A stretch of DNA of 64,000 nt, taken from the IMG/VR virus record IMGVR_UViG_3300021400_000134; one strand, 5' to 3'. A program made the position numbers and the translations under genes. The notes under the pieces were generated by a model. That model saw only the letters and a program-made list of their open reading frames with translations, had not been told where the DNA came from and ran no database searches. The DNA comes from a virus (taxonomy: Duplodnaviria > Caudoviricetes). Positions 7,678 through 23,660 of this stretch are shown here, piece after piece. Each line of letters begins with the position of its first letter. The first letter of the stretch is position 1.

Positions 7678-8121
7678 TTGGCGAAGATGATAAATAAGTG
7701 CAAAGGAATTGAAGACATGCGCTATTCAATATTGGATATGCTGGATAATGGCATGAGTATTGCCGAGGTTAAGGAAAAATTTAATAAGATTTTAGAAGAG
7801 GAACAATGCCGTAAGGAATTTATTGATACTGTTGCGGCAGCTGTTGAAAAACTTATCAAAACCATGTATTCAGATGTAGCTGACCTATATGATGAAGAGA
7901 CATTCCAGATGTTTGCGGATGCTGATGTTCTTGGGAAAGTGGAGTATGATGCCCAGGAGTTGCGGAAGCTGAAGTCTGCCGGATATGAGAAGGCAGCGCC
8001 TTGGGAAGTCAATGATGACTTTGGCCCTGGTCCCACTCTAAAGGTGACTAAGGCACCTATTAAGTCTACGGCCGCAAAGGATGATGATGATATTCTTAAG
8101 GTGTGGTCAGCGTCCTTGTAA
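7678..8121 (+). CDS. hypothetical protein
   Basis: 147-aa ORF behind a TGTTATAAT promoter. Confidence 0.65.
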   Translation: MAKMINKCKGIEDMRYSILDMLDNGMSIAEVKEKFNKILEEEQCRKEFIDTVAAAVEKLIKTMYSDVADLYDEETFQMFADADVLGKVEYDAQELRKLKSAGYEKAAPWEVNDDFGPGPTLKVTKAPIKSTAAKDDDDILKVWSASL

Positions 8122-8990: not shown

Positions 8991-9158
8991 CCGACCGTAG
9001 TCGGAGTTAGTCTCAACTAACTGACCGATGGTCAGAGTTAGTTAGCCTAAACTAACTGTTGCGTTTCCAACTAATTTGTGAAAGTTCAAACTTTCACAAA
9101 CTTGACTCCCTGAAAATTTTTCATTTTTTTGAAAACAAATTTGTGAATTTTCTCACAA
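8991..9158. promoter_or_regulatory. tandem array of different palindromic operator-like sites
   Basis: CCGAC-N4-GTCGG, GTTAG-N6-CTAAC x2, CTGACC-N3-GGTCAG, GTTG-N6-CAAC, TTGTGAA-N10-TTCACAA, TTGTGAA-N4-CTCACAA; the first six abut. Confidence 0.7.
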
Positions 9159-9391
9159 TAACGGGAAAAGCAAAAAAATTTTAAAATTTTTGAATTTTTT
9201 TCTTGACTTTTGCGGTGGCGTGTGGTATAATGAAAACGGCCTGGTTCGCTAGTAAGCGGGCCGCCAATTATAGCACGACTGGGGGTGCTTGTCAAGCACT
9301 TTTTTTGACAATTTTTTGCCATTTTCTGTTTAGTATTACTAAACTACCGGCAGTTAGTCAAGCCTAACTCTGGCTCAAAAAAAGAAGGCTT

Positions 9392-9784
9392 CTAGCCCTC
9401 CTTTTTAGCCCTGTGAGCGGTTAATGTCAGCGTGTAGTGCACGCCATTATCACCCACAAAGTCCACCGCACGCTCGGCGTTTACAACGCTCACAGAAGCA
9501 ATTCCAGCAGTGGCGCCAAGCGCATCAGCGACCGCCTTAATGACTGCCTGTTTGAACAAGTCCGCTTTGCGCTCCCTCGGCTTGGCGTTTCCGCTCACCT
9601 TGCGAGTACCTGTATTAGCGAGTTTGCGAGCGTTGCGCATCTGTTCCTTGGTTAAGTCCCAAGGCTTGGCAATTCCGCGGTCGGTATCGCGGTCATCCGC
9701 AATTAACTGTATTGCTTCCTCGCGTGTGCATTTCAGCGTGCGCATGTGATGCTGAATTAACTTTTCATCCAATAGTATCACCAC
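9392..9784 (-). CDS. hypothetical protein, paralog of 12694..13095
   Basis: Shared HM.TLKCTREEAIQLI.DD...LT.EQ...RERK.D..K...Y.LTLT.HRAKK. Confidence 0.75.
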   Translation of the reverse strand: MVILLDEKLIQHHMRTLKCTREEAIQLIADDRDTDRGIAKPWDLTKEQMRNARKLANTGTRKVSGNAKPRERKADLFKQAVIKAVADALGATAGIASVSVVNAERAVDFVGDNGVHYTLTLTAHRAKKEG

Positions 9785-9826
9785 CTTTCACAACGGATGA
9801 GGGAGAAAGGGCTTGCGCCCTTTCCC

Positions 9827-10171
9827 TTAAATCTTGGTGAAATACGCTTTGCCTTTCACCACCTCGCGGGAGACAAGAACATTGTCGCGCATCTTTTTAA
9901 TCAGCGCAGACACTTTCTGCCCACTCGCTTCTGCGAGTTCAGGAACGAGCGCCTGAATCTCACTGACAGTGTAGGACTTTCCGCCCTCCATTGCCTCGTA
10001 AATACGCTCAATCAGTTCAGCGTTTGCCACCTGCTTGGCAGTGGGCTTGGTGGACTTGCGCTCGTTCTTTTTAGCGAGCAGTTCAAGTTCGTGCAGGAGG
10101 AATTCCTTGTCTTCCTCATGAGCGTAGCCGAGAATGCGGTTGAAATAGTCACGTTTCGTCATTTTTTCCAT
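9827..10171 (-). CDS. small winged-helix protein, paralog 2
   Basis: TKRD...HELELLAKKN...KPTAKQVANAEL...SGQKVSALIKKM...VVKGKAYF. Confidence 0.8.
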   Translation of the reverse strand: MEKMTKRDYFNRILGYAHEEDKEFLLHELELLAKKNERKSTKPTAKQVANAELIERIYEAMEGGKSYTVSEIQALVPELAEASGQKVSALIKKMRDNVLVSREVVKGKAYFTKI

Positions 10172-10511
10172 AGTTTAATCACCTTTACCTTTCTGTATAA
10201 ATATTACCATGGTTTTGAAGATAAGTCAAGCACTTTTTTTCATCTGCGGAAGATTTTTTTTGTGCCCTTCCCTTACCTTACAAATACATTATACAGAGTT
10301 GCCTGTACAAAAAACATGCCAACCCCGTGTGAAAAAATTCACAAGCGGCGGTTTAGTACCACTAAACTTTTGGGAGAAAAAAATTGGCAAAAAATTGTCA
10401 CACTTTTCTCTTGACAAATGCTGGCGGGTGTGCTATACTAAAATTTCGGCCCGCTGCACACGTTTGCGGGCCGGCCTGGTTAGTCAAGTATAACTTTCAA
10501 AAAATCGCAAT

Positions 10512-10560
10512 AAAAAACTGCCACCCCAAGGAGGAGGAGGGTGGACAGTTCGAGCGTCTT
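10512..10560 (-). ncRNA. terminator-like hairpin with anti-SD loop (U)CCUCCUCCUU, copy 1
   Basis: AACTGTCCACCC TCCTCCTCCTTG GGGTGGCAGTT followed by a U-run. Confidence 0.55.
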
Positions 10561-10783
10561 AAACTACAAATTCGGCATTAGTGAGAATACTGAGGACTGT
10601 TAAGGCGTTAAGGAGTTCGTCTCTCTGTGCGATGCGATAATCAGTTGCCTGCACAGCATTTAATTCCATTTCCCACATTTCATTATACAGAGAATTAACA
10701 ATTTCAATTGCTTTATCTAAAACTTCGCAATCTTCATCAGTAACATCAACGGGATAGCGGACAATCTTTTTAACAATTTCCAT
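10559..10783 (-). CDS. hypothetical protein (cassette)
   Basis: Own promoter and AGAGAGGTG SD. Confidence 0.7.
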   Translation of the reverse strand: MEIVKKIVRYPVDVTDEDCEVLDKAIEIVNSLYNEMWEMELNAVQATDYRIAQRDELLNALTVLSILTNAEFVV

Positions 10784-10846
10784 TTTATTCACCTCTCTTT
10801 ACATTATTAGTATAGCAGATTGGAAAGGGGTTGTCAACCCCTTTAT

Positions 10847-10981
10847 TTATTTTTTTTCTATCGAATTGATTACATCTGCTTTGTCTTTCATGATTTCCCA
10901 GAATTTTTCTTCTGCATCTTTTTTATTTTTTGCTTTAATTTTTATTACGCCCTCGTAAGTTACATAGAATTCTTTTTCCAT
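10847..10981 (-). CDS. 44-aa hypothetical protein (not in ORF track)
   Basis: MEKEFYVTYEGVIKIKAKNKKDAEEKFWE...; own promoter and SD. Confidence 0.65.
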   Translation of the reverse strand: MEKEFYVTYEGVIKIKAKNKKDAEEKFWEIMKDKADVINSIEKK

Positions 10982-11054
10982 TTTGTTTACCTCTCTCTTA
11001 CAGTATTAGTGTATCAGATTAGAGGGGATTTGTCAACCCCCTCATCTGATTTTT

Positions 11055-11294
11055 TTAGAAATCTTCGTTAGCGTAATTCTTGACGATTTTTGCAAACAGT
11101 TTCACTGTGTCAATGTAGGTTTCATGGTCGCTTGCCATGTCCTCGTAGTCTTCAAGTTCTGCGCCGTCGGGAACTCCGCACATGAGCCAAGGTTCCATTG
11201 CATCTTCATCATTCATGTAGCGAATTGCGTAGTCCATAGCCTGCAGGACTTCAACTCTGCGACCGATTACTTCTCTTTTAAACTGTTCTGTCAT
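11055..11294 (-). CDS. acidic hypothetical protein (cassette)
   Basis: Own promoter and SD; W...GVPDGA motif. Confidence 0.7.
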   Translation of the reverse strand: MTEQFKREVIGRRVEVLQAMDYAIRYMNDEDAMEPWLMCGVPDGAELEDYEDMASDHETYIDTVKLFAKIVKNYANEDF

Positions 11295-11328
11295 TTTTCT
11301 TACCTCTCTTTACACTATTATAGTATCA

Positions 11329-11493
11329 CTACTGGCACTCGTTGTCAAGTGCTTTTTTCATTTTTCTTCTAAAATCTTTGCGGGTCTTGCGCTTCCAAAA
11401 GTGCCAAGCCTTGCGATTATTTTCAACCCAACAGGCATACTTTCTATCAAACTTATCCTCAAAGGTCATCTTCTTGTGAATGTTGTTTTTCAT
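11329..11493 (-). CDS. 54-aa basic, Trp-containing peptide (not in ORF track)
   Basis: MKNNIHKKMTFEDKFDRKYACWVENNRKAWHFWKRKTRK...; AAGGAGG SD. Confidence 0.6.
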   Translation of the reverse strand: MKNNIHKKMTFEDKFDRKYACWVENNRKAWHFWKRKTRKDFRRKMKKALDNECQ

Positions 11494-11752
11494 GATAACC
11501 CTCCTTCATTATTATAATACATCTTATTTTTAAAAAAGTCAATAAAAATTTTTGCAAAAATTTTTGCGTCAAAAAAAATTTTTTGGTATAATAAAAATGT
11601 AAGGTGAAGAACCTTACATTCCATTCCATTTTAAACTTTTCTAGAAAGCCGGTGATGAGCCGGCTTTCGCCTTTCCCGGGGCGGCACTTGTGAATGTTTT
11701 ATTTTTCACAAAGTCGTATTCAAAAAAAATAGGGGATTTTATCCCCTATTTT

Positions 11753-12079
11753 TTACAGTGCCTTGAAGATGGTAGACTTGCCGTCCTTCACCTTTTCGAC
11801 AGCGCCTGCTTCAACCAACTGCTTAAGCAGAGCGGAAGCCTTCTGAACGCTGATGCCGACAGCCTTTCCTGCATCAGTAGCAGTCAGACCTTCACCGAGG
11901 GCTTCAAGCAGAGCGCCCTTGATGGTTTCATTTTCCTTCTGAGTCTTTGTCAGACCCTTTCTCGGAGAACCTTTGCGGACAGACTTGAGGGCTCTTTCAA
12001 CGAGGAAGTTGAACTGTTCTTCTGTCAGAGAATCGTAAGCAATAGCGTTAATCTGTTCTGTAATAGTTGTCTTTGTCAT
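11753..12079 (-). CDS. small winged-helix protein, paralog 3
   Basis: GLTATDAGKAVGISVQKASALLKQLVEAGAVEKVKDGKSTIF is a typical wHTH. Confidence 0.8.
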   Translation of the reverse strand: MTKTTITEQINAIAYDSLTEEQFNFLVERALKSVRKGSPRKGLTKTQKENETIKGALLEALGEGLTATDAGKAVGISVQKASALLKQLVEAGAVEKVKDGKSTIFKAL

Positions 12080-12693
12080 GTGTAATCACCTTTTACCTTT
12101 CTTTTTACACTTTTATTTTAGCATCTCTTGGATGCTTTGTCAAGAGTTTTTTTAACTTTTTTTAAGTTTTTTCTCTTGAGGAATCAGCCGAAGGTTTGTG
12201 GATGTGTTGTAAGTTTTTGGCACCCTCGCCCCTTACATTTTAAGTATAGCACCTTCGTTGTAGTTTGTCAAGGGATTTCTTTTAAATTGTTAAGAAATTT
12301 TTTCGGGGGTCTCTCTTGGTCTCTCTCCGTCCCTTGCAAGTATAGTATAGCAGATGGTAGAAGCCTTGTCAAGACTTTTTTTAACTTTTTTTCAAGTTTT
12401 TTAAGTGCTGACTTGGCGGGGCTTCCTTACCCTTGCTACACCCATAGTATAGCAGATGGAGCGGATGCTGTCAAGGGTTTTTGGGAAAATTTTTTAAGAA
12501 ATTTTTTTAAATTTTTCTCTTGACAAAAATTGCGCGGGGTGGTATAATGGAAAATTCCGGCCGTGCGGACAGTGCACGGCCGGCCCAGTTAGTCAAGCCT
12601 AATTTTAAAAATTTTTCGGCACGCCTGGCCCCGTGTGCAGTAGAGACAACGGGTTCAGGTGGGTCATTCCGCAAGCACAAAAAAGGCTTACTG

Positions 12694-13095
12694 TCAAGCC
12701 TTTTTTGCACGATGTTTTGTGAGTTTTACGGTGTAGTCATTTGCGTGATAGGTGAAACTGATTTCCGCTTCGTTTTTAAGAGTCAGATTTTCAATTTCGC
12801 CATTCAGATTGAAGCCTTCAAGGACAACCCGAAGCCAATCAAACACAACCTTTTTGTCTTCGTCGACCTTACGCTCACGATTTACAGAACGCTTTTCAGG
12901 AGGCTTGCGGTCGGCTTTTGTCAGACCTCTTACCATCTTTTTCTGCTCAGCAGTCAGAGCAAACAATTCAGTATTTCCATGGTCGATTTCATCATCACAA
13001 TTGATAAGGTCGATTGCTTCCTCTCTTGAGCATTTCAGAGATTTCATGTGCTTCTGAATGAGTTCTTCAAGTTCTTTTTCTGTACGTCTTGCCAT
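12694..13095 (-). CDS. hypothetical protein, paralog of 9392..9784; TGA stop
   Basis: Paralogy; own promoter; AGAGAGGTG SD. Confidence 0.75.
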   Translation of the reverse strand: MARRTEKELEELIQKHMKSLKCSREEAIDLINCDDEIDHGNTELFALTAEQKKMVRGLTKADRKPPEKRSVNRERKVDEDKKVVFDWLRVVLEGFNLNGEIENLTLKNEAEISFTYHANDYTVKLTKHRAKKA

Positions 13096-13168
13096 TGAGT
13101 ACACCTCTCTTTCTGTAATAATAATAGCATGGGGAAGGGGTTTTGTCAACCCCTTCCGCTATCTTTTT

Positions 13169-13516
13169 TTAAATCTTTGTGAAGTAAGCAGCTCCCTTCA
13201 CAACTTCTCTCGATACGAGAACATTATCACGCATCTTTTTAACGAGAGCGGAAACCTTCTGACCGCTTACATCGGCAAGTGCAGGAATCAGAGCCTGAAT
13301 TTCAGCGATACGATAGGACTTGCCTGTTTCCATCGCTTCATAGATTTCTTCAATCAGTTCAGCATTGGCAACCTGCTTTGCAGACGGCTTGTCAGAGCGT
13401 CTTTCATTCTTTTTTGCGAGCAACTCGAGTTCATGGTCGATGAATGCGATTTCCGCTTCATCAGTCAGATGGGTACGAATCTGTTCGAACATTTCACGCT
13501 TTGTAATCTTTGTCAT
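13169..13516 (-). CDS. small winged-helix protein, paralog 4
   Basis: Close paralog of 9827..10171. Confidence 0.8.
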   Translation of the reverse strand: MTKITKREMFEQIRTHLTDEAEIAFIDHELELLAKKNERRSDKPSAKQVANAELIEEIYEAMETGKSYRIAEIQALIPALADVSGQKVSALVKKMRDNVLVSREVVKGAAYFTKI

Positions 13517-14090
13517 AATTAATCACCTTTTACCTTTCTTACAATTTAAGTATACACCTTTTTGGTTATGTTGTCAAGAGGTTTTTTCAGATTTTTTTAA
13601 GGATTTCTTTTTTCTCATCCCCTCTTTACATTCTAATTATAGCAGACTTGCTATACTTTGTCAAGAGGTTTTTCTACATTTTTTTCTGAGGCTACGTATC
13701 TATCGCTTCTAGTTGCTCAATACGGTTCATCCTCTTGACATTATTAGTATAGCAGATGTTGGAAGATTTGTCAACACCTTTTTTAGAAATTTTTAAGAAA
13801 TTTTTTTCTATTTCTTTTTTATTTCTATAATAATTATAAACCTTTTTTATAAAAAAGTCAACAAAAATCTTTGCTAATTTTTTCACAAACGCCGCCCGGG
13901 ATTTCCGCAAAAATCACACAATTTCACATAATTTTCTTCTTGACTTTTGGTCGTGGGTGTGGTATAATTTTCGGTCGTTAGCGGCAACTAACTATGGCTT
14001 AAAAATTTTTTATTTTTGCACAAAAAGTGTTGACAATCTTTTTCTTTTGGTGTATTATAATCTTGTAAGTTAAAGGAAGGTAAAAACACT

Positions 14091-14804
14091 ATGAATTTCT
14101 ACATGACTATTGACACAGAAACAACCAACTCACTTGATGATGCTCTTGTTTACGATTTGGGGCTTGCCATCCATGATGCGGAAGGTAATGTGTATCATAC
14201 TGAAAGTTTTGTTATCGCTGACATTTTCTTCAATGAAGAACTCATGAAAGTTGCGATTTTTGCAAATAAGATTCCGCAGTATCGTGCAGACATTGAGAAT
14301 GGAATACGCACGCTGACTACATTCAGAAAGGCACGCACTGAAGTGCTGAAACTAATGAAGCGCTACAATGTTAAGGCGGTCATTGCGCACAATGCATTCT
14401 TTGACTTCAAGTCATTAAATACAACGCTCCGCTTTCTGACTAATTCAAAATATCGCTTCTTCTTTCCATGGGGTACTGTAATTTGGGACAGTCTGCGCAT
14501 GGCTAAAACTACTTTTGGAAAGGATGCCAATTACACAAAGTGGTGTGAAGAGCATGAATACCTTACCAACAAGTACCGCAAGCCGAAAATGACTGCCGAG
14601 GTTCTGTATCGCTACATCACCAAGAATGAAACCTTCATTGAAGAGCACGCAGGACTTGCAGATGTGCTGATTGAAAAGGATTTGACAGCCTACTTTCTCA
14701 AGCATGACCATGCAGGAATGAAGAAATGTCTCTTTAATCCGAAGAAGGAAGAAGATGTTAAAACCATGCTTGAATGGTGGACAGAAAGTTTGCTCTGTGA
14801 GTAA
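14091..14804 (+). CDS. DEDDh 3'-5' exonuclease
   Basis: IDTETT (ExoI), AHNAFFD (ExoII), EEHAGLADV (ExoIII); promoter TTGACA at 14030. Confidence 0.85.
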   Translation: MNFYMTIDTETTNSLDDALVYDLGLAIHDAEGNVYHTESFVIADIFFNEELMKVAIFANKIPQYRADIENGIRTLTTFRKARTEVLKLMKRYNVKAVIAHNAFFDFKSLNTTLRFLTNSKYRFFFPWGTVIWDSLRMAKTTFGKDANYTKWCEEHEYLTNKYRKPKMTAEVLYRYITKNETFIEEHAGLADVLIEKDLTAYFLKHDHAGMKKCLFNPKKEEDVKTMLEWWTESLLCE

Positions 14805-14947
14805 ACTTTTTATTTAGTCTGACTAAACTTTCGGGATAAAAAAATTTCTTAAAAAAATTGCAAAAAATGCTTGACAAAATGCCGGGAGTGTGTTCTAATG
14901 AAAAAACTGGTCGTTGCGCCCGGCGACGGCCAGCCCGAAAAGTCAAC

Positions 14948-15000
14948 AAAAAAAGCCAATAGGCAAGGAGGAGGAACCCATTGGCTTGGAGCGGTTTTTA
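14948..15000 (-). ncRNA. terminator-like hairpin with anti-SD loop UCCUCCUCCUU, copy 2
   Basis: AAGCCAATGGGT TCCTCCTCCTT GCCTATTGGCTT followed by a U-run; directly 3' of the tRNA-like gene. Confidence 0.55.
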
Positions 15001-15003
15001 AAT

Positions 15004-15091
15004 TGAGGGCGACGGGACTCGAACCCGCATTATAGCGCGCATATCACATTCGGCACACTGACCGACGGCACTACCATTGTGCTACGCCCTC
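15004..15091 (-). tRNA. tRNA-like gene with long variable arm and aberrant anticodon arm (most like degenerate tRNA-Leu CAG)
   Basis: Acceptor GAGGGCG/CGCCCTC + A73; D-arm GCAC-AATGGTA-GTGC; T-arm GCGGG-TTCGAGT-CCCGT; anticodon arm TCGG-TCAGTGTG-CCGA is non-canonical; no encoded CCA. Confidence 0.75.
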
Positions 15092-15123
15092 ACAAGGGGG
15101 GAGCCTTTCGGCTCCTCCTGCGC

Positions 15124-15456
15124 TTACTCGGCGATTCCGAAGGTTGCCTTTACCTTACCCTTGGCTTCAGTCACCTTGGTGAACTTGCCACTGCGGTTGA
15201 GGATTGCGCTTGCCTTCTGATTGGAGATGCCGAAGGCTTCTTCAACCTGTCCGCAAGTTACAGCGCCATTTTCAGCGATGTAAGCGACAATCTTATCAGC
15301 GAGTTCAGCGTTGGCAACCTGTGCCTTAGTCGGCTTATTGGACTTGTAGCCCTTGCGCTTGTCGAGCAGTTCGAGTTCATGTCCGCAGAAACCTACGATT
15401 TCAGCGTCATTGGAGCAGACTTCCATAATCTTGTTCAGCATTTCTCTCTTTGTCAT
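15124..15456 (-). CDS. small winged-helix protein, paralog 5
   Basis: N-terminus like paralogs 2 and 4, C-terminus like paralog 1. Confidence 0.8.
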   Translation of the reverse strand: MTKREMLNKIMEVCSNDAEIVGFCGHELELLDKRKGYKSNKPTKAQVANAELADKIVAYIAENGAVTCGQVEEAFGISNQKASAILNRSGKFTKVTEAKGKVKATFGIAE

Positions 15457-15554
15457 AATCATCACCTTTTACCTTTCTTATCTCTTTGTGATTTTAGTAT
15501 ACAACATTTCAGCCATGTTGTCAAGCCCTTTTTCAAGGTTTTTTTATTTTTTTA

Positions 15555-15633
15555 CTCCAATTCTTTTCACTCTTGGAAACCAAGCAGATTGACAGTCGCT
15601 ACACAGTAACAGTCGTCTTTCTTTCCTTTGGTA
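15555..15633 (-). ncRNA. candidate small RNA (promoter, no ORF)
   Basis: TTGACA-N16-TATAAT upstream; ACCAA/TTGGT and TCCAA/TTGGA stems. Confidence 0.4.
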
Positions 15634-15687
15634 ATTTTATTATAGCACTTTTCAGAAGATTGTCAAGTACTTTTTTTAAGAAATTTT

Positions 15688-15838
15688 TGAAACTTCCTCT
15701 TCAAGTTTCAGAGCGGGGTTGCGCACCCACCGCACAAGTCAACAGGGTTCATTTGATATTTTAGCAACTCCGAGCCTGCCCTGTAAGGCTTAACGCCACT
15801 GAGTGATGCGGGTTTGAAGGGTTTTCCTTCCCTTTACA
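15688..15838 (-). ncRNA. candidate structured ncRNA (about 150 nt)
   Basis: Own promoter; stems CCGCA/TGCGG, ACAGGG/CCCTGT, GGC-GTTAA-GCC, GGGT-GCGCA-ACCC, TGAAACTT/AAGTTTCA; no SD-led ORF. Confidence 0.55.
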
Positions 15839-15899
15839 CTTACATTATAGCATCTTTTAGCTATCTGTCAAGTGTTTTTTTAACTTTTTTTATTTTTTT

Positions 15900-16061
15900 T
15901 GTAAGGAGCAAACAGCGGTACTCACATGACCATTGATGCAGTAGGGACTACACTCACCACCTCACACCATGCGAGTTAACTAGTATTTACCATGGTTCTG
16001 TTGGTGTCTCTTGCTAGAGCGCTGACATGATACCATTGAGTACCCTTGTTTGCCTCTTACA
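15900..16061 (-). ncRNA. candidate structured ncRNA (162 nt) with long 5'/3' closing stem
   Basis: Promoter TTGACA(16095-16090)-N17-TATACT; TGTAAG..GCAAACA..GGTACTCA pairs with TGAGTACC..TGTTTGC..CTTACA; internal stems CTCT/AGAG, CACCA/TGGTG, ACCATG/CATGGT, GTAG/CTAC. Confidence 0.7.
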
Positions 16062-16115
16062 TCTTTAGTATAGCAGACTTTTGAGAGCCTGTCAATACTT
16101 TTTTTTAAATTTTTT

Positions 16116-16237
16116 CGGTCGCGCGACCTATCTTCTCGGTTCGATTATACTGCTGAACCTGCGGCGATTAACCGTTACTTTGAAGACAGCCTTTGCCAAG
16201 GAGCGGTTTTTTAACGAGGCCTGATGCCTTCCTCACA
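16116..16237 (-). ncRNA. candidate structured ncRNA with three-way junction
   Basis: Own promoter; CTGTCTTC/GAAGATAG encloses CGGT/GCCG and GGTTC/GAACC; contains TTAAAAAACCGCTCC. Confidence 0.55.
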
Positions 16238-16300
16238 CTCTTATTATAGCAGATACCGCTGTAATGTCAAGTGTTTTTTTATTTTTTTTAGCAGTTTTTT

Positions 16301-16349
16301 TAGTAAGTTTTCGGTTAACCCGCTTACCAAGAGTGCTTCATCTCTTACA
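16301..16349 (-). ncRNA. candidate two-hairpin small RNA
   Basis: Own promoter; AAGAG/CTCTT and GGTAAG-CGG/CCG-CTTACT stems. Confidence 0.4.
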
Positions 16350-16443
16350 AGTATAGTATAACAGATTTTAGAATAATGTCAACACTTTTTTTAAAAGTTT
16401 TTAAGTTATTTTTTTCACAAAGTTCGGCGCCCGGGCGGGAAAC

Positions 16444-17115
16444 TCACCGAGCAAAGGCGAGTTTCCGCATTTTCTTGTGCTGTGCCATACATTTCACAGT
16501 AATTGCAATTTCAATCAGCACATCGTCAAGACCCTGATGTTCTTCTGTAAAATCGTTATCTCCTGTAATGTAGCGGTAGAGAATTTCTGCTGTCTTGCGG
16601 ACTTTGCCGTTTTTGCAGAGATAGCCATTTTCTTCACAGAATTTAATGTATGTTTTCTGCTTGCAGATGGTATCTTCTGCCATAACCATTGAGTCATACA
16701 GCGGGATGCCATACGGCAGAAAATAACGGTATTTTGATTTTGTAGTGTAGCGCATTGTAGTAGTTAATGACCGATAGTCAAAGCGGGCATTATGTGCAAT
16801 GATTGCCTTTACATTGTATTTATCACAAAGTGCTTTCACGATTTTTTTAGCGGTGAATACGCTAATCATTTTACGCTCTCCGCTTTTCAGTGCCTGCTCA
16901 TACTTTGGTAACTTGCTTGCATAGTAGGCGGATTTCATCAGTGCTTTTTCTTTAGCGTAAATATCATAGATAACATAACTTGCTTTTTCGTAAACCTTCC
17001 CCCGCTTGTCATGGATTGCAAGACCGAGGTCATACGCAAGCGGGCAATCCAAGCCATTTGCAGTTTCAGTGTCAATTGTCATGTAATAAGTAATACGCTT
17101 GTCAATCTTTGTCAT
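16444..17115 (-). CDS. DEDDh 3'-5' exonuclease, paralog of 14091..14804; TGA stop
   Basis: IDTETA, AHNARFD, EEHQGLDDV. Confidence 0.85.
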   Translation of the reverse strand: MTKIDKRITYYMTIDTETANGLDCPLAYDLGLAIHDKRGKVYEKASYVIYDIYAKEKALMKSAYYASKLPKYEQALKSGERKMISVFTAKKIVKALCDKYNVKAIIAHNARFDYRSLTTTMRYTTKSKYRYFLPYGIPLYDSMVMAEDTICKQKTYIKFCEENGYLCKNGKVRKTAEILYRYITGDNDFTEEHQGLDDVLIEIAITVKCMAQHKKMRKLAFAR

Positions 17116-17325
17116 AGGGTTTCCTCTCTTTACAACTATTATTATACACCTATTGGAGATAATGTCAAGCGTCAGTTTCGGGATTTTTTAATTTTTTTCA
17201 AAAAATTTTTTTATTTTTCCTCTTGACATCGGCGGGCAAACGTGGTATAATTTTGGACCGTTAGCGGTGGCTAACTTTGCGGTTGCCGGTAAAACCGTCC
17301 GGCAGACCGCCGAGCGCAAAAAAAA

Positions 17326-17733
17326 TCAACCCCACAGTTCAGCAGGATTGAGTGCTACACCTTTCCAAGAGTTGCGGATTGGTTCAGAATCATCGACAAG
17401 AACCGCATTCACAGAGTTTTTGAGGTTCTTATTGTGACCGTAGGCTCTGTAAATTCTCTTTGTGAGAGAAGGGAAGAACCTGTCGAGCCAAGCGTTTTTC
17501 TGTTCTTCAACATTCTTGCAGTATTCAGCAGTTGCGCCGAGCGGTGTCATGCTGAGGATGCGGATTTCATACTTGTCAGTGGGGAAGAAATTCAGAAGTT
17601 CTTTTTCTGTAATCATTGGCTTGCATTCAAGGAAGATTGTTTCATCGGAGGCTCTCAGTCTCGGAAGCCAATTTTCAATGCCGTACAGGTCAGCGATTGT
17701 TCCATCCATGTCAAGGTAAACTGTCTTTTTCAT
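17326..17733 (-). CDS. HAD-superfamily phosphatase (5'-nucleotidase-like); TGA stop
   Basis: VYLDMDGTIAD motif I; ILS motif II; LVDD motif IV. Confidence 0.75.
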   Translation of the reverse strand: MKKTVYLDMDGTIADLYGIENWLPRLRASDETIFLECKPMITEKELLNFFPTDKYEIRILSMTPLGATAEYCKNVEEQKNAWLDRFFPSLTKRIYRAYGHNKNLKNSVNAVLVDDSEPIRNSWKGVALNPAELWG

Positions 17734-17820
17734 AATTCTTTATTCCTCTCTTTACACTATTATAATACACTGCTTGTTTCTGTTTGTCAATACCTTTTTG
17801 TAAAAAAAAGAAAAGATTTT

Positions 17821-17970
17821 TTAATCTTTTCTTTTAACTGTTATAATGTTTTCTTTGTTTTCAAAGATGATTTCTTCCAGTTCTTTAATCTTGTATTTAA
17901 GATTGCGGATTTCGTCGAGCGCATCTTCGTAATTCTGTCTGTAAAGTTCCGTGTAATTAATTTCTGCCAT
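17821..17970 (-). CDS. 49-aa coiled-coil peptide (not in ORF track)
   Basis: MAEINYTELYRQNYEDALDEIRNLKYKIKELEE...; GAGGTG SD. Confidence 0.6.
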   Translation of the reverse strand: MAEINYTELYRQNYEDALDEIRNLKYKIKELEEIIFENKENIITVKRKD

Positions 17971-18004
17971 ACTCTTCACCTCTCAATTTTATTTTACCAT
18001 TTTT

Positions 18005-18490
18005 TTAATAACTTGTCAATGATGTTTTTACATGATGCAGGTTTTCGTAATGTCTAACCGCACAGTTCAAGCGGTGGCACCATGCCCGCATGCTTTCCGC
18101 GTTTTCATTGTAAACATTTACCGCAAACTCTGTCGCTACTTTCTCTATTGGTTGATTGTAGTATGCTTGATACCTTGCGGAGCCTGTCAGACCTCTTAGC
18201 AGTTTTTCACTTGCTTGCTCTTCCCACTCATCTTCATTGAAGTAGTCAACCGTGTAGTGATGACCGAGTTCATGCAGTACAGACAAGGCAAACAGATTTT
18301 CTTTTGTCAGCGTAAAGTTGAAGGTATCTTTCAGATACTTTGCCCATTCTCTGTTGGCGTCATTATTTTCAAACAGAGTGATGCAGATTTCTTTTGTATC
18401 AGGTTCATAGCAGAAATAGTCATACATGCGCACAGTGCAATCATAACCGATGAACTTTTCAACTATCTTGGTCAAACTGTTCTTTTTCAT
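18005..18490 (-). CDS. HExxH metallopeptidase-like protein
   Basis: VLHELGHH...PIEKVATEFA. Confidence 0.65.
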   Translation of the reverse strand: MKKNSLTKIVEKFIGYDCTVRMYDYFCYEPDTKEICITLFENNDANREWAKYLKDTFNFTLTKENLFALSVLHELGHHYTVDYFNEDEWEEQASEKLLRGLTGSARYQAYYNQPIEKVATEFAVNVYNENAESMRAWCHRLNCAVRHYENLHHVKTSLTSY

Positions 18491-18675
18491 AGGACACCTC
18501 ACTTTTACATTATTATTATAACATAGATTTTTAAAAAGTCAACACTTACGGGAGAAAAATTGCGGTTAAATTTTTTTAATTTTTTGCTTGACAAATTGCT
18601 GGTTGTGTGTTATAGTGGAAAAACGTCGCGCCTGGGCCGTGGGCGCGACGCCGAAAAGTCAAGAAAAAAACCGCC

Positions 18676-18819
18676 TTAACCCAGCGGCGGCCAGGGGTGC
18701 GGATTGGTGGTGATGAACGTGTCATCCCAACCGAGGCTCTCCATCTCCTCGTAAGCGTCAGCGAATGTGGCGAATGTGCCCCAGTGGAAACCATCTTCAG
18801 TGAACAGGTAGTACTTCAT
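18676..18819 (-). CDS. 47-aa acidic/aromatic peptide (not in ORF track)
   Basis: MKYYLFTEDGFHWGTFATFADAYEEMESLGWDD...; AAGGAG SD; own promoter. Confidence 0.6.
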   Translation of the reverse strand: MKYYLFTEDGFHWGTFATFADAYEEMESLGWDDTFITTNPHPWPPLG

Positions 18820-18905
18820 TTTTTTATCTCCTTTTCTTTACACTCTTATTATAGCAGATTTAGTTTTTTTGTCAATACTTTTGAAAAAATTTTTTTAGCA
18901 GATTG

Positions 18906-19346
18906 TCAAGCCCTTTTTAACTTGGCAATCTGCTTTGTGTTCATCAGCGTGGCGTTCTCAAGTTTAATCTGAACTTCCCGACCGTCAATCTGAATGTCAC
19001 CCTGTACCCAGAAGGGAACGTTATCCTTTTCCCATGTCTGACCGTAGTATTCAGTAACCAGCTTTTCGAAGATTTCACCCTTGTTGTACTTGTCAGCAAT
19101 CAGCATGTCAGCGGAGCCAAGACAGACAGGATGTTTCTTCATCAACTGCTTTTTCAGTTTGAGTTTTGGACGGAAGCGAAGATTTTCACCCTGATTTCTG
19201 CTTGCCTGTTCTACTGACAAGAAGCGTGGCATGATTTCCGCAACCTCTACCATGTAGAGTTTCTTTTCAAGTGTGAAGCCGAGGATGTAAGAATCAGCGG
19301 CTGAATTGTTTCTGTAGTGCTTAATCATTGTTCTCTTGGTTGTCAT
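18906..19346 (-). CDS. hypothetical protein, possible PD-(D/E)XK-like fold; TGA stop
   Basis: NKGEIFE...GDIQIDGREVQIK. Confidence 0.6.
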   Translation of the reverse strand: MTTKRTMIKHYRNNSAADSYILGFTLEKKLYMVEVAEIMPRFLSVEQASRNQGENLRFRPKLKLKKQLMKKHPVCLGSADMLIADKYNKGEIFEKLVTEYYGQTWEKDNVPFWVQGDIQIDGREVQIKLENATLMNTKQIAKLKRA

Positions 19347-19593
19347 TTTGTTTCCCTCTTTTCTTTACACTCTTATTATAGCAGATTGCCGGATGAAGTC
19401 AACACCTTTTTTTAAACTTTTTTATTTTTTTGCTCTTGGTCGATGCATTACTGAAAAAATTTACATTTTGGGAGAAAAATTTTCATGCAATTTTCATCAT
19501 TTTTTGCTTGACAAAATCCGGGCCGGTGTAGTACAATAAATTTCGCGCCGGCTCGGTAGTGGGCGGCGCGCCAAAAGTCAATAAAAAAATGCC

Positions 19594-19770
19594 CTACTTA
19601 CCGCAGAGCATTTCCCACATCTCGCGGGTATCGCAGGAGTAGGAGACCCACCCTTCACCATCCTCGAGCACGTCGGCGTACTTGTAGCCACCGTCGACAT
19701 ACCAGATAGCGCGATTTTCGCAAGTAGCGAGAACATCGCAGTAAGTAGCAATCAGTTCCATGTGTTTCAT
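19594..19770 (-). CDS. 58-aa hypothetical protein (not in ORF track)
   Basis: MKHMELIATYCDVLATCENRAIWYVDGG...; GAGGAGGTG SD; own promoter. Confidence 0.6.
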   Translation of the reverse strand: MKHMELIATYCDVLATCENRAIWYVDGGYKYADVLEDGEGWVSYSCDTREMWEMLCGK

Positions 19771-19831
19771 TTGAACACCTCCTCTTTACAATTATAGTAT
19801 AACATGATTCTTTAGAATGTCAACACTTTTT

Positions 19832-20029
19832 TTAAAATTCTTCAAGCAAATAATACAGATTTTCTTCATTTATTTTTTTGGCAAATTGTGCGGTAAACCA
19901 AACATCGGTTTCTTCATCGTAATAAAAGTGAGGAATGTAGCAAATAGTATCTTTATCACCATACCATTCACAATTATTGAAAAAATCTTCAGAAATTGTG
20001 TAGAAGTCTTCGTTAATTTTTGTAATCAT
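19832..20029 (-). CDS. acidic/aromatic small protein
   Basis: Own promoter and SD; D/E/Y/F-rich. Confidence 0.65.
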   Translation of the reverse strand: MITKINEDFYTISEDFFNNCEWYGDKDTICYIPHFYYDEETDVWFTAQFAKKINEENLYYLLEEF

Positions 20030-20072
20030 TTTTTACACCTCTCTTTACATTATTATTATATCCTACTGGTTA

Positions 20073-21321
20073 TTATTTGTCAAGGGTTTCGGGATACTTT
20101 TTTACTTTTTCAAAGAATAATTCTCTCAGCAGATCGCAAATTTCTTCTTCGGTGACTCCTTTGGCGTGATACTTAGAAAAATAATAGCAAGTGAGTCCGC
20201 TCATGAGGATCTCATACTGTTTTGCTGTAAACTCCATTTTATCTGTTTCCTTTCACAATTTTATTTAATTCTAACAGGGTATTTTTATAGTATGCCATGC
20301 ACTTTTCATTAATACCCTTTTTAATTTCTTTTACAAGCAGTTTATCAATTAATTCATCGGCATTTTCTTTGTCTCTATTTTTCAGCAGATAATCAAGTTC
20401 TGTCATCTTTACCACCCCTTTCTGCAAGCATTTTTCTGTGCCTGCTTCTTTTTGTTTGGTACTACTTTATGTCCGAGTTTCCGCAGATTGCGGTTGAGTT
20501 CTTCATTGCGGAAATTGTAGAGTGTTTCTGTTCCATTAGCGTTTTTGTATTTCTTCATCTCTTGGTTCTCCTTACAATTATAGTATAACAGAAAAAAGGT
20601 ATTTGTCAATATCTTTTTTCTAATTTTTCTGTGTAAATGTCAGAATCAGGGAACCAATCAAGTCGTCTTGTAATGCTATCAATTTCATCTGCGGTGATGT
20701 GTCTAAAATCACGATCGCAATTTAACAGAAGGGCTTTATTTCCATCCGTACGCCGAAGTTCTTCTGAAATATTCTCAAGTACAGTGTTTACTGTAACGAA
20801 TGCTTCTTTTTCTTCTTCTGTTAATGAAAAGGTTATTTTCTTTGTTATTTCCATTTTATCACCTTTCTTACTCGTTGTCAAACATTAATTTAATACTGAA
20901 GAATGCAAGGCATCCGCTCAGCGCAAGAATGAAACTCATCATACTTTACCATACCTTTCTAACACATGGAGATTGAAACCTACAACCGCAACCGCAAGCA
21001 GAATAATTGGCAATGCTTCAATTGAGAAGTCATTAATTGAGACTAACATAATTGTTAATACCATTGTGATAATTTCAAGTGCCGTCTGAATGGCAGGTCT
21101 TAATGTTCTGTTCATTTTTTATACCTCTCTTTACATTATTATTATAACATAATTATTTTTATTGTCAACATTTAATTCTTAAGAATTGTGAGAAGTTCAT
21201 TCTTATTCACCTTAACCAAGCGGAACAGACCCCGCAAAGTCAAATTGTTAATAACCTGAGTTTCTCCAGTAGAGACATTAGTAATCTTTACTGTGTATAA
21301 CTGAATCTTTTTCTTTGCCAT
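20073..21321 (-). CDS. run of small cassette genes (20073-20237, 20239-20406, 20409-20558, 20606-20854, membrane peptide 20939-21115, 21172-21321)
   Basis: ORF track plus manual translation; each has an SD and several have their own promoter. Confidence 0.55.
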
Positions 21322-21549
21322 GTTCTGAACCTCCTTACATTATTATTATAACACAACGCCGGAAATTGTCAATAGTTTCGGGCAAAAAGTTTCAGGAAAT
21401 TTTAAAAAATTTTTAAAAAATTTCAATTTTCCTCTTGACTTCTGCGGCCCGGCATGCTATAATTTTTCGACCCGTTAGCGGTGACTAACCAAAGTCCGCA
21501 CTTGTGAAAGTTTAAACATTCACAAGTTTCTCCAAAAGAAAAGAGGTTC

Positions 21550-21777
21550 TCACCTCTCTCCGTACAGTGTCAGCACTGTTTCATCTCCGATGAAGTAGCA
21601 AGTTACTGCGTCGCCTTCTTCAAGGTCGTCTGCTTCAACCTCATACAATTCACCGTCAAGATTCACAATGTAATAATCATTGTATTCAGCGCCACCTTCA
21701 ATAGTTTTTTCAACTACATAACCGCTCTGTTTCTGCGCACCGAGAAGAGCAAGAACCGCAAGTATTACTTTAATCAT
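21550..21777 (-). CDS. small protein with N-terminal hydrophobic or signal segment; TGA stop
   Basis: MIKVILAVLALLGAQ followed by an acidic beta-rich domain. Confidence 0.65.
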   Translation of the reverse strand: MIKVILAVLALLGAQKQSGYVVEKTIEGGAEYNDYYIVNLDGELYEVEADDLEEGDAVTCYFIGDETVLTLYGER

Positions 21778-21909
21778 TGTATCACCTCTCTTTACAATTC
21801 TATTATAACATCTCTACTGGATTTGTCAACACTTTTTTAAACTTTTTTATTTTTTTAGAGTTTGTGAATGTTTTATTTTTCACAAGTTCCCCAAGAAAAA
21901 AACAGGTTT

Positions 21910-22125
21910 TTAAGCCTGCCATTCAGCGAGAGCCTGACGGTAGAGTTCAGCGGACTCTTCCATCTCTTCTTCTTCGTACCATTCGATTTCACGGGTAAGC
22001 CATTCTTCGAAGCCGAAGTCTTCATCTTCTTCATCAAACGCTCCCTCGTATCCTTCCATCCAGTATTCCATCCAGATGCTGAGCATTTTTTCTTCATGTT
22101 CGTTGAGTTTTGCGAAGTCTTTCAT
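21910..22125 (-). CDS. very acidic small protein (DNA-mimic candidate)
   Basis: 25 of 71 residues are D/E; 5 Trp. Confidence 0.7.
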   Translation of the reverse strand: MKDFAKLNEHEEKMLSIWMEYWMEGYEGAFDEEDEDFGFEEWLTREIEWYEEEEMEESAELYRQALAEWQA

Positions 22126-22269
22126 TTTTCTTTCCTCTTTCTTTTTACACTTTTATTATAGCATACTATTCCGGTCTGTCAATACTTTTTAATTAATTTT
22201 TTAATTAAATTTATTCCCGCAAAAACTTTGTGAAAGTTCAAACTTTCACAAGTTGCCCCTAAAAAAAAC

Positions 22270-22422
22270 TTAGCCAAGTTTGGCAAGTTCTTCGTTCAGA
22301 GCCTTGAGTTCTTTCTGAAGTTTTGCAACCTTAGCGAAGTTGTAGTGAAGGTCAGCCATTTCTTCATACCAGATTTCAGCCTTAACTTCATTGATTTTCT
22401 TTTCGAGTTCTGTTCTTGTCAT
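22270..22422 (-). CDS. 50-aa helical peptide (not in ORF track)
   Basis: MTRTELEKKINEVKAEIWYEEMAD...; GAGGT SD; own promoter. Confidence 0.6.
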   Translation of the reverse strand: MTRTELEKKINEVKAEIWYEEMADLHYNFAKVAKLQKELKALNEELAKLG

Positions 22423-22871
22423 TTTATTTACCTCTTTTCCTTATCTTCACCCTTATTATAGCCGGCGTTTGCGGTTTTGTCAAGGGGTTTTCTTAACTTT
22501 TTTTATTTTTTTCTCGGGGTTTTCTTTGTCCCTTCCCCTTCCTTCAATTATAGTATAACACACTTTCTGTCAATGTCAAGCCCTTTTAATAAAAAATTTT
22601 TTTTATTTTTTTATAAATTTTTCTTGACAAGTCGCAAGCTCTGTGGCATGCTGTGGCTGTGCTGGCAAGGCTCTGCATCGATGCAGTGCTAAGGTTTCAG
22701 GAAAAGGTGCTGGCTCTGACTTTGGTGCTGAAGCGCTTGCGAAAATGTGGTGAGTTCAGACAGTGCGAAAATTGCGTCGCCACACCCGCTGGCGGCGCAA
22801 GGCACGCTTACTAGTAGCACATTAGCCAAGACCGCAAACTCTTGCGCTGCATCGATGTGTTGTATTCTTTT

Positions 22872-23660
22872 AACTATTCTATCTACTCTTGGTTAGTCTA
22901 TACTAACTAACACTGTTAGTGTACACTTACTATACATGTGTAGTGTAGTGTAGTACACTGTTACTACTGTTGTTGTATAACATGCTGTGTGTGTACTACT
23001 TACTACTACTGTTACTGCTACTATTGTACTGTATGTAGTACACACATTGTCTGTCTACTGTTGTTGTGTGTATCTTATTATCTTACTACTAATGTATTAG
23101 TACTGTTGTGTTACCTCTTCATCATACTGTGTGAAGTCTCTGTATCCTGTCAGTACATACAACACATCACACATTGTCTGCGTGTTGTATCCATTGAGTG
23201 CTGTTGCTACCTGCATGGTCTGCTCCTGCACACCTACTACATCTACCAAGTAGTTATACATGTCTTCTGTTGTGTTATACATCATTGTCTCTCCTTGTTT
23301 ACACTATTATTATAACATGTTGTTGTGTTGTTGTCAACAGTTGTTGTTGTGTTGTTGTGTTACTCTCTTGGTTGGCTCTGGCTGGCTGGCCAAGCCTCTA
23401 GGCCTAGGCCCTGTAGCCGTAGAGCACTCTGTAGTCGTGTGTAGGCACCCAATAGCCATCAAATACATAAGCGATGTTCTCATTCTGTCTGAGTTCTCTA
23501 GCCTTAGCTACAGCCTCTTCTCTCAGAGTGTAGTGCTCTTCTACCTCTTTTACCACTGTGCCGAATGCTACAGTGTTTACTGTTGTGTTGTCTACTGTTC
23601 TATGTCTTAACATCTTGTGTACCTCTCTTATCCTCTTTACACTTGTATTATAGCAGTACA
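22872..23660. other. homopolymer-depleted segment containing two cassette genes (23097-23285, 23404-23613, minus strand)
   Basis: No AAA/TTT/GGG/CCC between 22872 and 23297; rich in TAC/TGT/ACA. Confidence 0.8.

Follow-up and report, generated by a model that had tools for sequence, protein, structure and literature searches.

What does a phage do with near-consensus promoters that point against its early genes and open onto no gene of their own? The question arises in a 64,000-nucleotide stretch of DNA (the window) from a virus of the Caudoviricetes (Duplodnaviria; IMG/VR record IMGVR_UViG_3300021400_000134), in which a 16-kb early region holds around 40 small minus-strand genes and RNAs, each under a consensus promoter of its own. 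Between positions 8000 and 24000 we found 95 promoter-like sites, compared with 33.6 ± 6.0 in shuffled sequences. Among them are nine near-consensus promoters on the plus strand, at 9203, 10411, 12520, 13940, 14871, 17223, 18588, 19508 and 21435. All nine had been reported in the initial annotation, with the sixth placed at 17224, which we correct to 17223. As had also been proposed, each is followed by a hairpin or a palindrome: six copies (class A) carry a GC hairpin of exactly 27 bases beginning 6–8 bases past the −10, and in three (class B; 13940, 17223 and 21435) the hairpin is replaced by a sequence-conserved palindrome, with 5-base arms and a 6-base gap, at the predicted start. The modules and their immediate surroundings are as follows.

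9151–9306, plus strand: module 1, class A; A/T tract, −35 at 9203–9208, −10 at 9226–9231, 27-base hairpin at 9237–9263
9285–9306, plus strand: terminator of module 1, its hairpin containing the −35 of the facing promoter
9267–9295, minus strand: full-consensus promoter facing module 1 across the hairpin at 9237–9263
10359–10548, plus strand: module 2, class A; −35 at 10411–10416, −10 at 10434–10439, hairpin at 10447–10473, palindrome at 10479–10494; then meets the minus-strand terminator (10518–10548) of gene 10559–10783
12468–12706, plus strand: module 3, class A; −35 at 12520–12525, −10 at 12543–12548, hairpin at 12557–12583, palindrome at 12588–12602; its bidirectional terminator (12679–12706) is common to gene 12694–13095
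13888–13992, plus strand: module 4, class B; −35 at 13940–13945, −10 at 13963–13968, palindrome at 13977–13992; in tandem, upstream of an ordinary promoter (14030–14058) and plus-strand gene 14091–14804
14819–14985, plus strand: module 5, class A; −35 at 14871–14876, weaker −10 at 14894–14899, hairpin at 14907–14933; faces the terminator (14955–14985) that ends a minus-strand unit whose last member is tRNA-Leu (15003–15092)
17171–17351, plus strand: module 6, class B; −35 at 17223–17228, −10 at 17246–17251, palindrome at 17260–17275, second GC hairpin at 17281–17308; faces the terminator (17326–17351) of gene 17326–17733
18536–18688, plus strand: module 7, class A; −35 at 18588–18593, −10 at 18611–18616, hairpin at 18624–18650; faces the terminator (18670–18688) of gene 18676–18819
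19456–19616, plus strand: module 8, class A; −35 at 19508–19513, 18-base spacer, −10 at 19532–19537, hairpin at 19544–19570; faces the terminator (19584–19616) of gene 19594–19770
21383–21525, plus strand: module 9, class B; −35 at 21435–21440, −10 at 21458–21463, palindrome at 21474–21489, longer second palindrome at 21502–21525; faces the 3′ end of gene 21550–21777
22624–22652, plus strand: non-member site with a good −35 and upstream tract and a poor −10

The modules form a distinct family, separate from the minus-strand gene promoters. Their spacers are GC-rich, as first noted (61% GC, compared with 38% for 40 minus-strand gene promoters; p = 7 × 10−5), and on the module strand G outnumbers C by 68 to 26. 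Upstream of the −35 lie an A/T-rich tract and, around 48 bases before it, a conserved G-rich motif. A profile of the upstream-plus-promoter part gave one weak match among the approximately 40 minus-strand consensus promoters of the window and many copies in relatives, with relative orientation unchanged. We left the site at 22624, originally listed as a tenth member, out of the family because the profile does not detect it. A ribosome site followed by a start codon is absent directly downstream of all nine modules. The description of the modules as gene-less holds to that extent, with the qualification that module 4 stands in tandem upstream of a gene promoter. The reported regular spacing of 1–2 kb is loosely borne out, neighbouring modules (n = 9) being 920–2,352 bases apart; the regularity is rough and comes in part from repeated larger units.

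The hairpins vary in sequence and persist in structure. In a first set, 32 of 33 hairpin sequences differed. In the covariation analysis, 94.4% of cells were paired, compared with 70.8% in shuffles and 32–47% in slid controls. Double-sided changes numbered 45, against 15.3 ± 3.2 in shuffles, a value reached by none of 500. Wobble pairs extending the helix were enriched in the module's own RNA (30, compared with 10.5 ± 3.2 for loop shuffles, none of 2,000 reaching that value) but not on the opposite strand (6, compared with 8.7 expected), although neither these counts nor those of covariation are fully independent events because the copies share ancestry. As G–U enrichment is confined to the strand that would be transcribed from the module's promoter, selection acts on the hairpin as an RNA of that strand. 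This supports the earlier suggestion of tiny RNAs, and some copies end at a nearby terminator. The hairpin flanks are also conserved (an A/T leader, then CC and an A-rich tract), and many loops carry a common motif on the 3′ side.

Placement relative to the opposing genes is just as systematic. All eight window modules opposed to a minus-strand unit have that unit's intrinsic terminator 82–182 bases beyond the module −35, and around 8 of 18 minus-strand terminators lie at modules even though module neighbourhoods make up only around 13% of the region. Roughly half of the minus-strand terminators have no module, and the device is therefore not needed at every boundary. As an independent sample we used a promoter-only pattern query, which returned 134 matches; a GC hairpin began 5–9 bases past the −10 in 50 of them (49 at 6–9). 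Among 47 distinct copies, 28 face an opposing terminator (bidirectional in 12 cases) and 12 face a promoter, such that 40 of 47 would fire within approximately 50 bases into the oncoming unit's terminator or a facing promoter. The linker from hairpin to opposing terminator varies from around 8 to 35 bases, so no tight geometry backs a bumper model. Two of the 9 window copies and 13 of the 47 in the independent sample have a predicted intrinsic terminator of their own, and hence a predicted discrete short RNA, of 60–150 bases. With a plus-strand terminator near only two of the nine window modules, most backward transcripts could continue antisense for hundreds of bases within the preceding gene, a pattern as compatible with an antisense regulator as with a boundary.

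Uncultured phages of the gut and rumen carry the family widely, and the host is of Firmicute type. Across related phage contigs the family is always restricted to the early block and always opposes the genes: in a 176-kb relative, 11 distinct strong matches share one strand within around 17 kb, and in a 140-kb relative 6 do so within 10.5 kb. Relatives at approximately 43% marker-protein identity retain blocks of 3–5 small genes followed by a counter-oriented module, with 59–69 bases from the module to the next promoter, and a cultured Enterococcus phage (H1) carries a recognizable copy. Retention of orientation, placement, covariation and RNA-strand wobble bias to this distance and in the Enterococcus phage argues for a function.

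The reading that we favour, at a little short of an even chance, is that the modules are cis-acting boundary elements working through convergent transcription. Host RNA polymerase with its primary sigma factor would read the gene-less units from a very strong promoter aimed against the early genes, producing from each a short non-coding RNA whose first bases would fold into the GC hairpin, usually of 27 bases. The module sits at the downstream end of an early-gene block, right past its terminator, and stands back-to-back with the promoter that opens the following block. A polymerase at or leaving the backward promoter would meet one that has read through, or one from a facing promoter, and the oncoming polymerase would be stopped by roadblock or head-on collision, ending the block cleanly and preventing spill into the next. 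The nascent 5′ hairpin may keep the backward polymerase from sliding back and fix the position of the encounter, and in the variants with a start-site palindrome a DNA-binding protein would control the same device. The polymerase trap or insulator suggested in the initial annotation thus survives as the best fit, on the strength of the positions right past block terminators and the 40 of 47 copies facing a terminator or promoter. Module 4 counts against this model, pointing at a plus-strand gene and not at a terminator, and neither the G-rich spacer nor the conserved motif 48 bases upstream is explained by it.

A precedent for such a mechanism exists in E. coli: when RNA polymerases from convergent units collide head-on, read-through is prevented, and the site of collision is set by a nascent stem-loop (Wang, Watters, Ju and Liu; bioRxiv 10.1101/2022.10.23.513370). 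There, convergent units meet at an intergenic stem-loop, as do the 28 of 47 copies that face an opposing terminator, but both partners are ordinary genes, whereas one partner here would be a dedicated gene-less promoter that is repeated at least nine times per genome and has its own 5′ hairpin besides the terminator. The stronger proposal, that phages of this group carry a dedicated transcriptional insulator, with a consensus promoter and start-site RNA hairpin following each early-gene block for the sole purpose of launching host polymerase against read-through, and with a regulated version bearing a start-site operator, is one we consider possible but rather doubtful.

It may instead be the product and not the act of transcription that matters. 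The RNA would then pair with the early mRNA converging on it, at the 3′ end, and alter that mRNA's stability or processing, for example as an RNase III substrate, with the 5′ hairpin stabilizing the module RNA against 5′-end-dependent decay. Lambda OOP RNA (pO-oop-tO), a short antisense RNA convergent with the cII 3′ end (PMC5869508), is the precedent: it is non-coding, has its own strong promoter opposing an early gene, and has a 5′ stem-loop and a terminator stem-loop. The RNA-selected hairpin at the extreme 5′ end fits this reading, every class A RNA would contain the complement of its neighbour's terminator, and most window copies, having no terminator of their own, would reach into the neighbour's coding region. 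However, OOP is a single-copy element with one target, cII, and a 55-base overlap with its coding region, whereas the modules are many and 12 of 47 are opposed by a promoter instead of the 3′ end of an mRNA; with a bidirectional terminator, only its hairpin would overlap. Seven of nine window modules converge with a protein-coding gene, one faces the tRNA unit and one points at a plus-strand gene. The faced genes are unrelated, the tRNA unit among them, and so no common regulatory logic is visible; early and antisense promoters would also be active simultaneously. We regard this alternative as unlikely, though worth weighing. A type I toxin–antitoxin arrangement was rejected, the 13 faced proteins being unrelated, mostly soluble and acidic, with one resembling a membrane peptide.

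Trans-acting or protein-binding small RNAs, acting for example as sponges or decoys that occupy a Cas protein (compare RNA anti-CRISPRs), a host RNase or an RNA-sensing defence, would account for the many copies per genome, the very strong promoters, the RNA-level selection on a hairpin of fixed size with conserved flanks and a shared loop motif, and the discrete RNAs predicted for terminator-bearing copies. Strict placement and orientation at terminators is not required of a trans RNA, however, and stems that differ between copies and between orthologues, with compensatory changes, are unexpected for a mimic of a single host repeat or a protein site. No Rfam family matched the hairpins, CRISPR repeat families included, even at permissive thresholds (E up to 5). 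We consider this reading improbable, and its special case of an RNA anti-CRISPR (a solitary repeat unit) was rejected because the stems differ and no CRISPR repeat family matched, the comparison covering Rfam families.

Devices acting at the DNA level, such as polymerase-driven DNA entry, supercoiling control of a divergent promoter or replication priming, are very improbable. The single orientation, which is also that of the late genes at 26–64 kb, the roughly regular spacing and the back-to-back arrangement with another promoter would suit them. Yet the modules are not spread from a genome end, and the DNA-entry ratchet proposed earlier is not supported, given their confinement to one internal block of 10–17 kb; in a relative with direct repeats at its contig ends, that block lies at 53–64 kb of 140 kb. 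The suggested supercoiling coupling fares no better: little supercoiling arises from short transcripts, the distance to the divergent promoter ranges from 46 to 182 bases and many products would be of only 60–150 bases. The wobble asymmetry indicates selection on RNA and not on a DNA cruciform.

The closest described cassettes are the promoter-early stem-loops (PeSLs) of the T4-type phages RB49 and phi1 (Arbiol et al. 2010, PMC2839356). Like the modules, these are short cassettes that recur through a plastic early region rich in small unknown genes and are associated with mosaicism, with a consensus host-type (sigma-70-type) promoter, an A/T-rich upstream tract and a stable stem-loop within or beside the promoter, in one subclass just before the transcription start. 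PeSLs follow the gene direction and finish with a ribosome site and a start codon, a pattern followed by the minus-strand gene cassettes of the window, whose terminator hairpins carry the next −35; the modules, by contrast, oppose the genes, are gene-less and have an RNA-selected hairpin fixed in size and position, and their host is Firmicute-type where that of PeSLs is a proteobacterium. A further reading takes the modules mainly as by-products of cassette shuffling, either PeSL-like substrates for recombination or inverted promoter cassettes that have no boundary role themselves; it is as improbable as the DNA-level devices. In its favour, shuffling of this kind is a known activity of PeSLs (PMC2839356), relatives differ in a highly mosaic way across the region, with several homology blocks ending at or beside a module (for example at 17256, and between 14828–14862 and 19424–19464), and a few hairpins are retained beside a truncated or degenerate promoter. 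Against it, breakpoints are equally frequent at ordinary gene junctions, and the conservation of orientation, placement, covariation and wobble bias described above points to a function.

Our literature searches found no published description of the module family, in agreement with its having been called undescribed. Antisense promoters, convergent transcription and promoter–terminator cassettes are known already; new, as far as these searches show, is a gene-less promoter, conserved and present in many copies, that has a fixed RNA hairpin at its start site and is positioned systematically at the ends of early-gene blocks. If the backward polymerase does enforce termination, it would show how a virus entirely dependent on host polymerase separates units amid dozens of consensus promoters in 16 kb, with repeated, purpose-built polymerase collision as a genome-organizing element, and would provide a compact natural insulator part portable for synthetic biology. 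The recognizable copy in a cultured Enterococcus phage makes the idea directly testable.

Module 1 shows the face-to-face variant. As originally described, two promoters, 9203 on the plus strand and 9295–9267 on the minus strand, converge on one hairpin. This pair and the 12 of 47 family members that face a promoter resemble pR/pL of coliphage 186, a face-to-face pair with transcriptional interference (reviewed in PMC6593788), in being strong promoters opposed at very short range, which must therefore interfere. The 186 pair is a single lysis–lysogeny switch with a repressor, whereas here a conserved hairpin lies between the promoters, each promoter would give a tiny product and the arrangement is one recurring variant of a repeated module. 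The promoter at 9295–9267 is also the sole minus-strand promoter with a module-like GC-rich spacer (71% GC).

Promoter-like sites are enriched in the 8–24 kb part of the window (95 versus 33.6 ± 6.0 in shuffles); they are of host type and the majority lie on the minus strand, the strand of the region's early genes. Nearly all small minus-strand reading frames, along with several gene-less stretches, have a consensus promoter to themselves, after which comes a conserved leader that includes a ribosome site. Nine plus-strand promoters are set apart from this background, with 920–2352 bases between consecutive members, confirming the plus-strand promoters at roughly regular spacing reported in the initial annotation. 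The tenth site proposed there, at 22624, did not hold up: its −10 is poor and the family profile does not recognize it.

Plus-strand modules of the window, by position of the −35
9203, plus strand, module 1, class A (hairpin)
10411, plus strand, module 2, class A (hairpin)
12520, plus strand, module 3, class A (hairpin)
13940, plus strand, module 4, class B (palindrome)
14871, plus strand, module 5, class A (hairpin)
17223, plus strand, module 6, class B (palindrome)
18588, plus strand, module 7, class A (hairpin)
19508, plus strand, module 8, class A (hairpin)
21435, plus strand, module 9, class B (palindrome)

In all nine modules the promoter has an extended −10 and is preceded by an A/T-rich tract. 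Its spacer is GC-rich (61% GC versus 38% for gene promoters, p = 7e-5), with G predominating on the module strand, and a G-rich motif around 48 bases before the −35 is nearly invariant. A profile restricted to the upstream and promoter part gave one weak match among the window's minus-strand consensus promoters, which number about 40; in related contigs it recovered dozens of copies, and almost every one was oriented relative to the genes as in the window. In each of the six class A copies the GC hairpin measures exactly 27 bases, regardless of how these are split between stem and loop; it starts 36–37 bases past the first −35 base, at the predicted transcription start, and is followed by CC and an A-rich tract. 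At the same position, the three class B copies have a palindrome of conserved sequence, its 5-base arms separated by 6 bases. A ribosome site with start codon does not directly follow any of the copies, and a small reading frame spanning the module was rejected for want of a conserved start or ribosome site. More distant members, such as those in the compared records L098 and L017 (about 9800–9850), have the G-rich −48 motif enclosed by an A/T-rich inverted repeat of 9 bases, which is absent in the window's lineage; this arrangement may be the binding site of a regulator acting on the module or on the divergent promoter.

Selection acts on the hairpin, and on the RNA form transcribed from the module's own promoter. 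In a first set, 32 of 33 hairpins differed in sequence. A gap-free alignment of 20 copies nevertheless had 94.4% of cells paired, compared to 70.8% when shuffled and 32–47% with slid partners, with compensatory change in six of nine pairs and 45 double-sided changes (15.3 ± 3.2 in shuffles, 0 of 500 reaching the observed count). As an independent sample, a promoter-only pattern holding no hairpin information was run over the viral collection; 50 of its 134 matches had a GC hairpin beginning 5–9 bases past the −10 (49 at 6–9), with a length of 22–29 and a mode of 27. Among 56 non-redundant hairpins, G–U wobbles extended the helix 30 times in the module-strand RNA (loop shuffles averaged 10.5 ± 3.2, and none of 2000 got this far) and six times on the opposite strand (8.7 ± 2.8), although neither these counts nor the covarying changes are fully independent events because the copies have common ancestry. 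An earlier strand test based on whole-fold energies and wobble counts gave 30 versus 23 (p = 0.17); it took a fixed register, the larger independent sample and loop shuffles to make the asymmetry clear. Neither a DNA cruciform nor a gene-strand terminator would produce such asymmetry. Two promoter-less hairpins in one relative had the reverse wobble bias. We conclude with high confidence that the modules form a genuine and conserved family, with selection at the RNA level.

Several other identities for the hairpin were rejected. A minus-strand back-up terminator would require a T-run that is missing in a distant relative, and the wobble bias lies on the other strand. The short −35-like hexamer that follows several hairpins has no −10 at a workable distance and decays in orthologues, which argues against a functional minus-strand promoter. 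A tRNA-like minihelix, suggested by a frequent CCA after the stem, was dismissed: of 20 aligned copies only 7 have CCA there, CC being commoner, and tRNA detectors did not respond. Identification with an RNA anti-CRISPR, or with any RNA family already described, was likewise set aside because the module had no match in Rfam.

All eight window modules that face a minus-strand unit have its intrinsic terminator 82–182 bases past their −35. About 8 of the 18 minus-strand terminators lie at modules, whose neighbourhoods make up around 13% of the region. We then classified the facing context of 47 distinct copies in a wider sample.

Context faced by 47 distinct module copies
Facing terminator acting on the oncoming strand only, 16 copies
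Facing bidirectional terminator, 12 copies
Second promoter across the hairpin, as at 9203/9295 in the window, 12 copies
Own terminator only, 1 copy
Other contexts, 6 copies

Oncoming transcription is opposed within about 50 bases in 40 of these 47 copies. The faced genes are mutually unrelated, one unit ending in tRNA-Leu, and a type I toxin–antitoxin reading was discarded for this reason; a tight bumper geometry was discarded because linker length is too variable. Within the window, a plus-strand terminator lies close by in modules 1 and 3 alone, with predicted RNAs of about 60 and 145 bases; transcripts of the remaining window modules could continue antisense. The terminator hairpins at 10518–10548 and 14955–14985 (as well as in the records L001, L002, L003 and L021) have different stems and a common 12-base purine loop, which in plus-strand sense strongly mimics a ribosome-binding site and in minus-strand sense is the complement of one. 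Modules 2 and 5 point straight at these two terminators, so the mimic would be exposed in a loop of the module RNA.

The constant features are a very strong backward promoter, a start-site RNA hairpin and placement squarely in the way of oncoming transcription, be it behind a terminator or opposite a promoter. Their simplest common denominator, and the most likely working of the module, is transcriptional interference, with the module as a putative cis-acting boundary element between gene blocks. A polymerase at or departing the module would block, or collide with, a polymerase that had escaped the block's terminator. A direct mechanistic precedent comes from convergent genes of E. coli, at which head-on collision is needed against read-through and a nascent stem-loop positions the collision (bioRxiv 10.1101/2022.10.23.513370). 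The main rival has the RNA itself as the agent, in the manner of lambda OOP; it fits RNA-level selection equally well, but is a poorer fit to the variants that face a promoter and to overlaps with a terminator only. Ranked below these two are decoy RNAs acting in trans, devices working at the level of DNA, and modules as nothing more than by-products of recombination.

Among known systems, the promoter-early stem-loop (PeSL) cassettes of T4-type phages resemble the modules in having a promoter, an A/T tract and a stem-loop within a plastic early region marked by mosaicism, but differ in being co-oriented with genes and ending in a ribosome site and start codon (PMC2839356). PeSL-like co-orientation with ribosome site and start codon is present in the window's minus-strand gene cassettes, whereas the modules lack it. 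A review of Herelleviridae transcriptomes mentions short non-coding RNAs without explanation and nothing resembling the module. Minus-strand gene-end hairpins at 10824–10844, 11030–11050, 11334–11353, 12125–12146 and 13133–13157 contain the next promoter's −35 hexamer in their loop or stem, so that terminator and next promoter overlap much as in PeSLs; L017 and Enterococcus phage H1 show this overlap too.

Searching whole related records with a sequence-only model of the promoter part gave 11 distinct strong matches in a 176-kb record, all on one strand and spanning about 17 kb, and six in a 140-kb record with terminal repeats, all on one strand at 53–64 kb; three further records had one match or none each. 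This clustering on one strand in a limited stretch indicates that the module is specific to the early small-gene block, rather than distributed over the whole genome or starting from one of its ends. The 140-kb relative (marker protein about 43% identical) has the same architecture, with blocks of three to five small genes, a promoter for each gene and a counter-oriented module after each block, every 1.1–1.6 kb and 59–69 bases from the next block's first promoter.

Window proteins had almost no matches in Pfam or PHROG, and no close DNA relatives were found among deposited phages. Enterococcus phages of 134–142 kb each encode two homologues of the region's exonuclease-like protein, at about 40% identity. 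One of these cultured phages, H1 (OP534061.1; host Enterococcus faecium), has the layout of the window, with small genes arrayed on one strand and a consensus promoter for each. Two H1 promoters oppose the early genes, with −10 elements at record positions 96876–96881 and 100066–100071. One counter-oriented H1 promoter is aimed at the terminator that closes the gene before it; a second, with the upstream G-rich motif of the family, has a 16-base GC hairpin 2 bases past its −10 and an A-rich tail of the kind seen in modules, and is the sole promoter-plus-start-site-hairpin unit in the 40 kb examined. Phage H1 thus offers a cultured handle on the module family.

The class B palindrome lies just 3′ of the start site, and a position just after the start site is the usual operator location. 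Related copies follow the hairpins of modules 2 and 3, and others occur at 9353–9368 and in a palindrome cluster near 9006–9056. Four paralogous proteins of about 110 residues in the region have a sub-threshold winged-helix signature (HTH_20, 25.9 bits versus a cut-off of 27).

Winged-helix-like paralogues (25–29% identity to the first)
9827–10171, minus strand, winged-helix-like protein
11753–12079, minus strand, winged-helix-like protein
13169–13516, minus strand, winged-helix-like protein
15124–15465, minus strand, winged-helix-like protein

Three of the four head or sit in blocks adjoining palindrome-bearing modules, and these proteins are putative palindrome binders. Palindromes of the form TGTGA ... 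TCACA, like the boxes of redox or catabolite regulators, also lie beside modules, at 10328–10343, 21502–21525 and 22228–22251 in the window and at about 17840–17860 and 18190–18205 of phage H1 (L142). A further palindrome type, in which 3 bases separate arms of 7, occurs at 9330–9346 and 10351–10367.

Past 26 kb, genes are exclusively on the plus strand. A T5-like tRNA array was ruled out as the cause of the gene-poor region, which holds a single tRNA (Leu). Candidate small-RNA gene arrays lie on the minus strand at 12115–12474, 13549–13861 and 15639–16382, each with three to six consensus promoters spaced about 100–220 bases apart without an intervening reading frame; their predicted products are small RNAs of about 70–160 bases that begin with the short leader also found at gene promoters. 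The exonuclease-like proteins (phrog_20187) form a paralogue pair in opposite orientation 1.6 kb apart, at 14091–14804 (plus) and 16444–17115 (minus). A promoter at 23337 sits within a run of short CAA/CAACA-type repeats (23290–23380), which lie upstream of it and inside its spacer.
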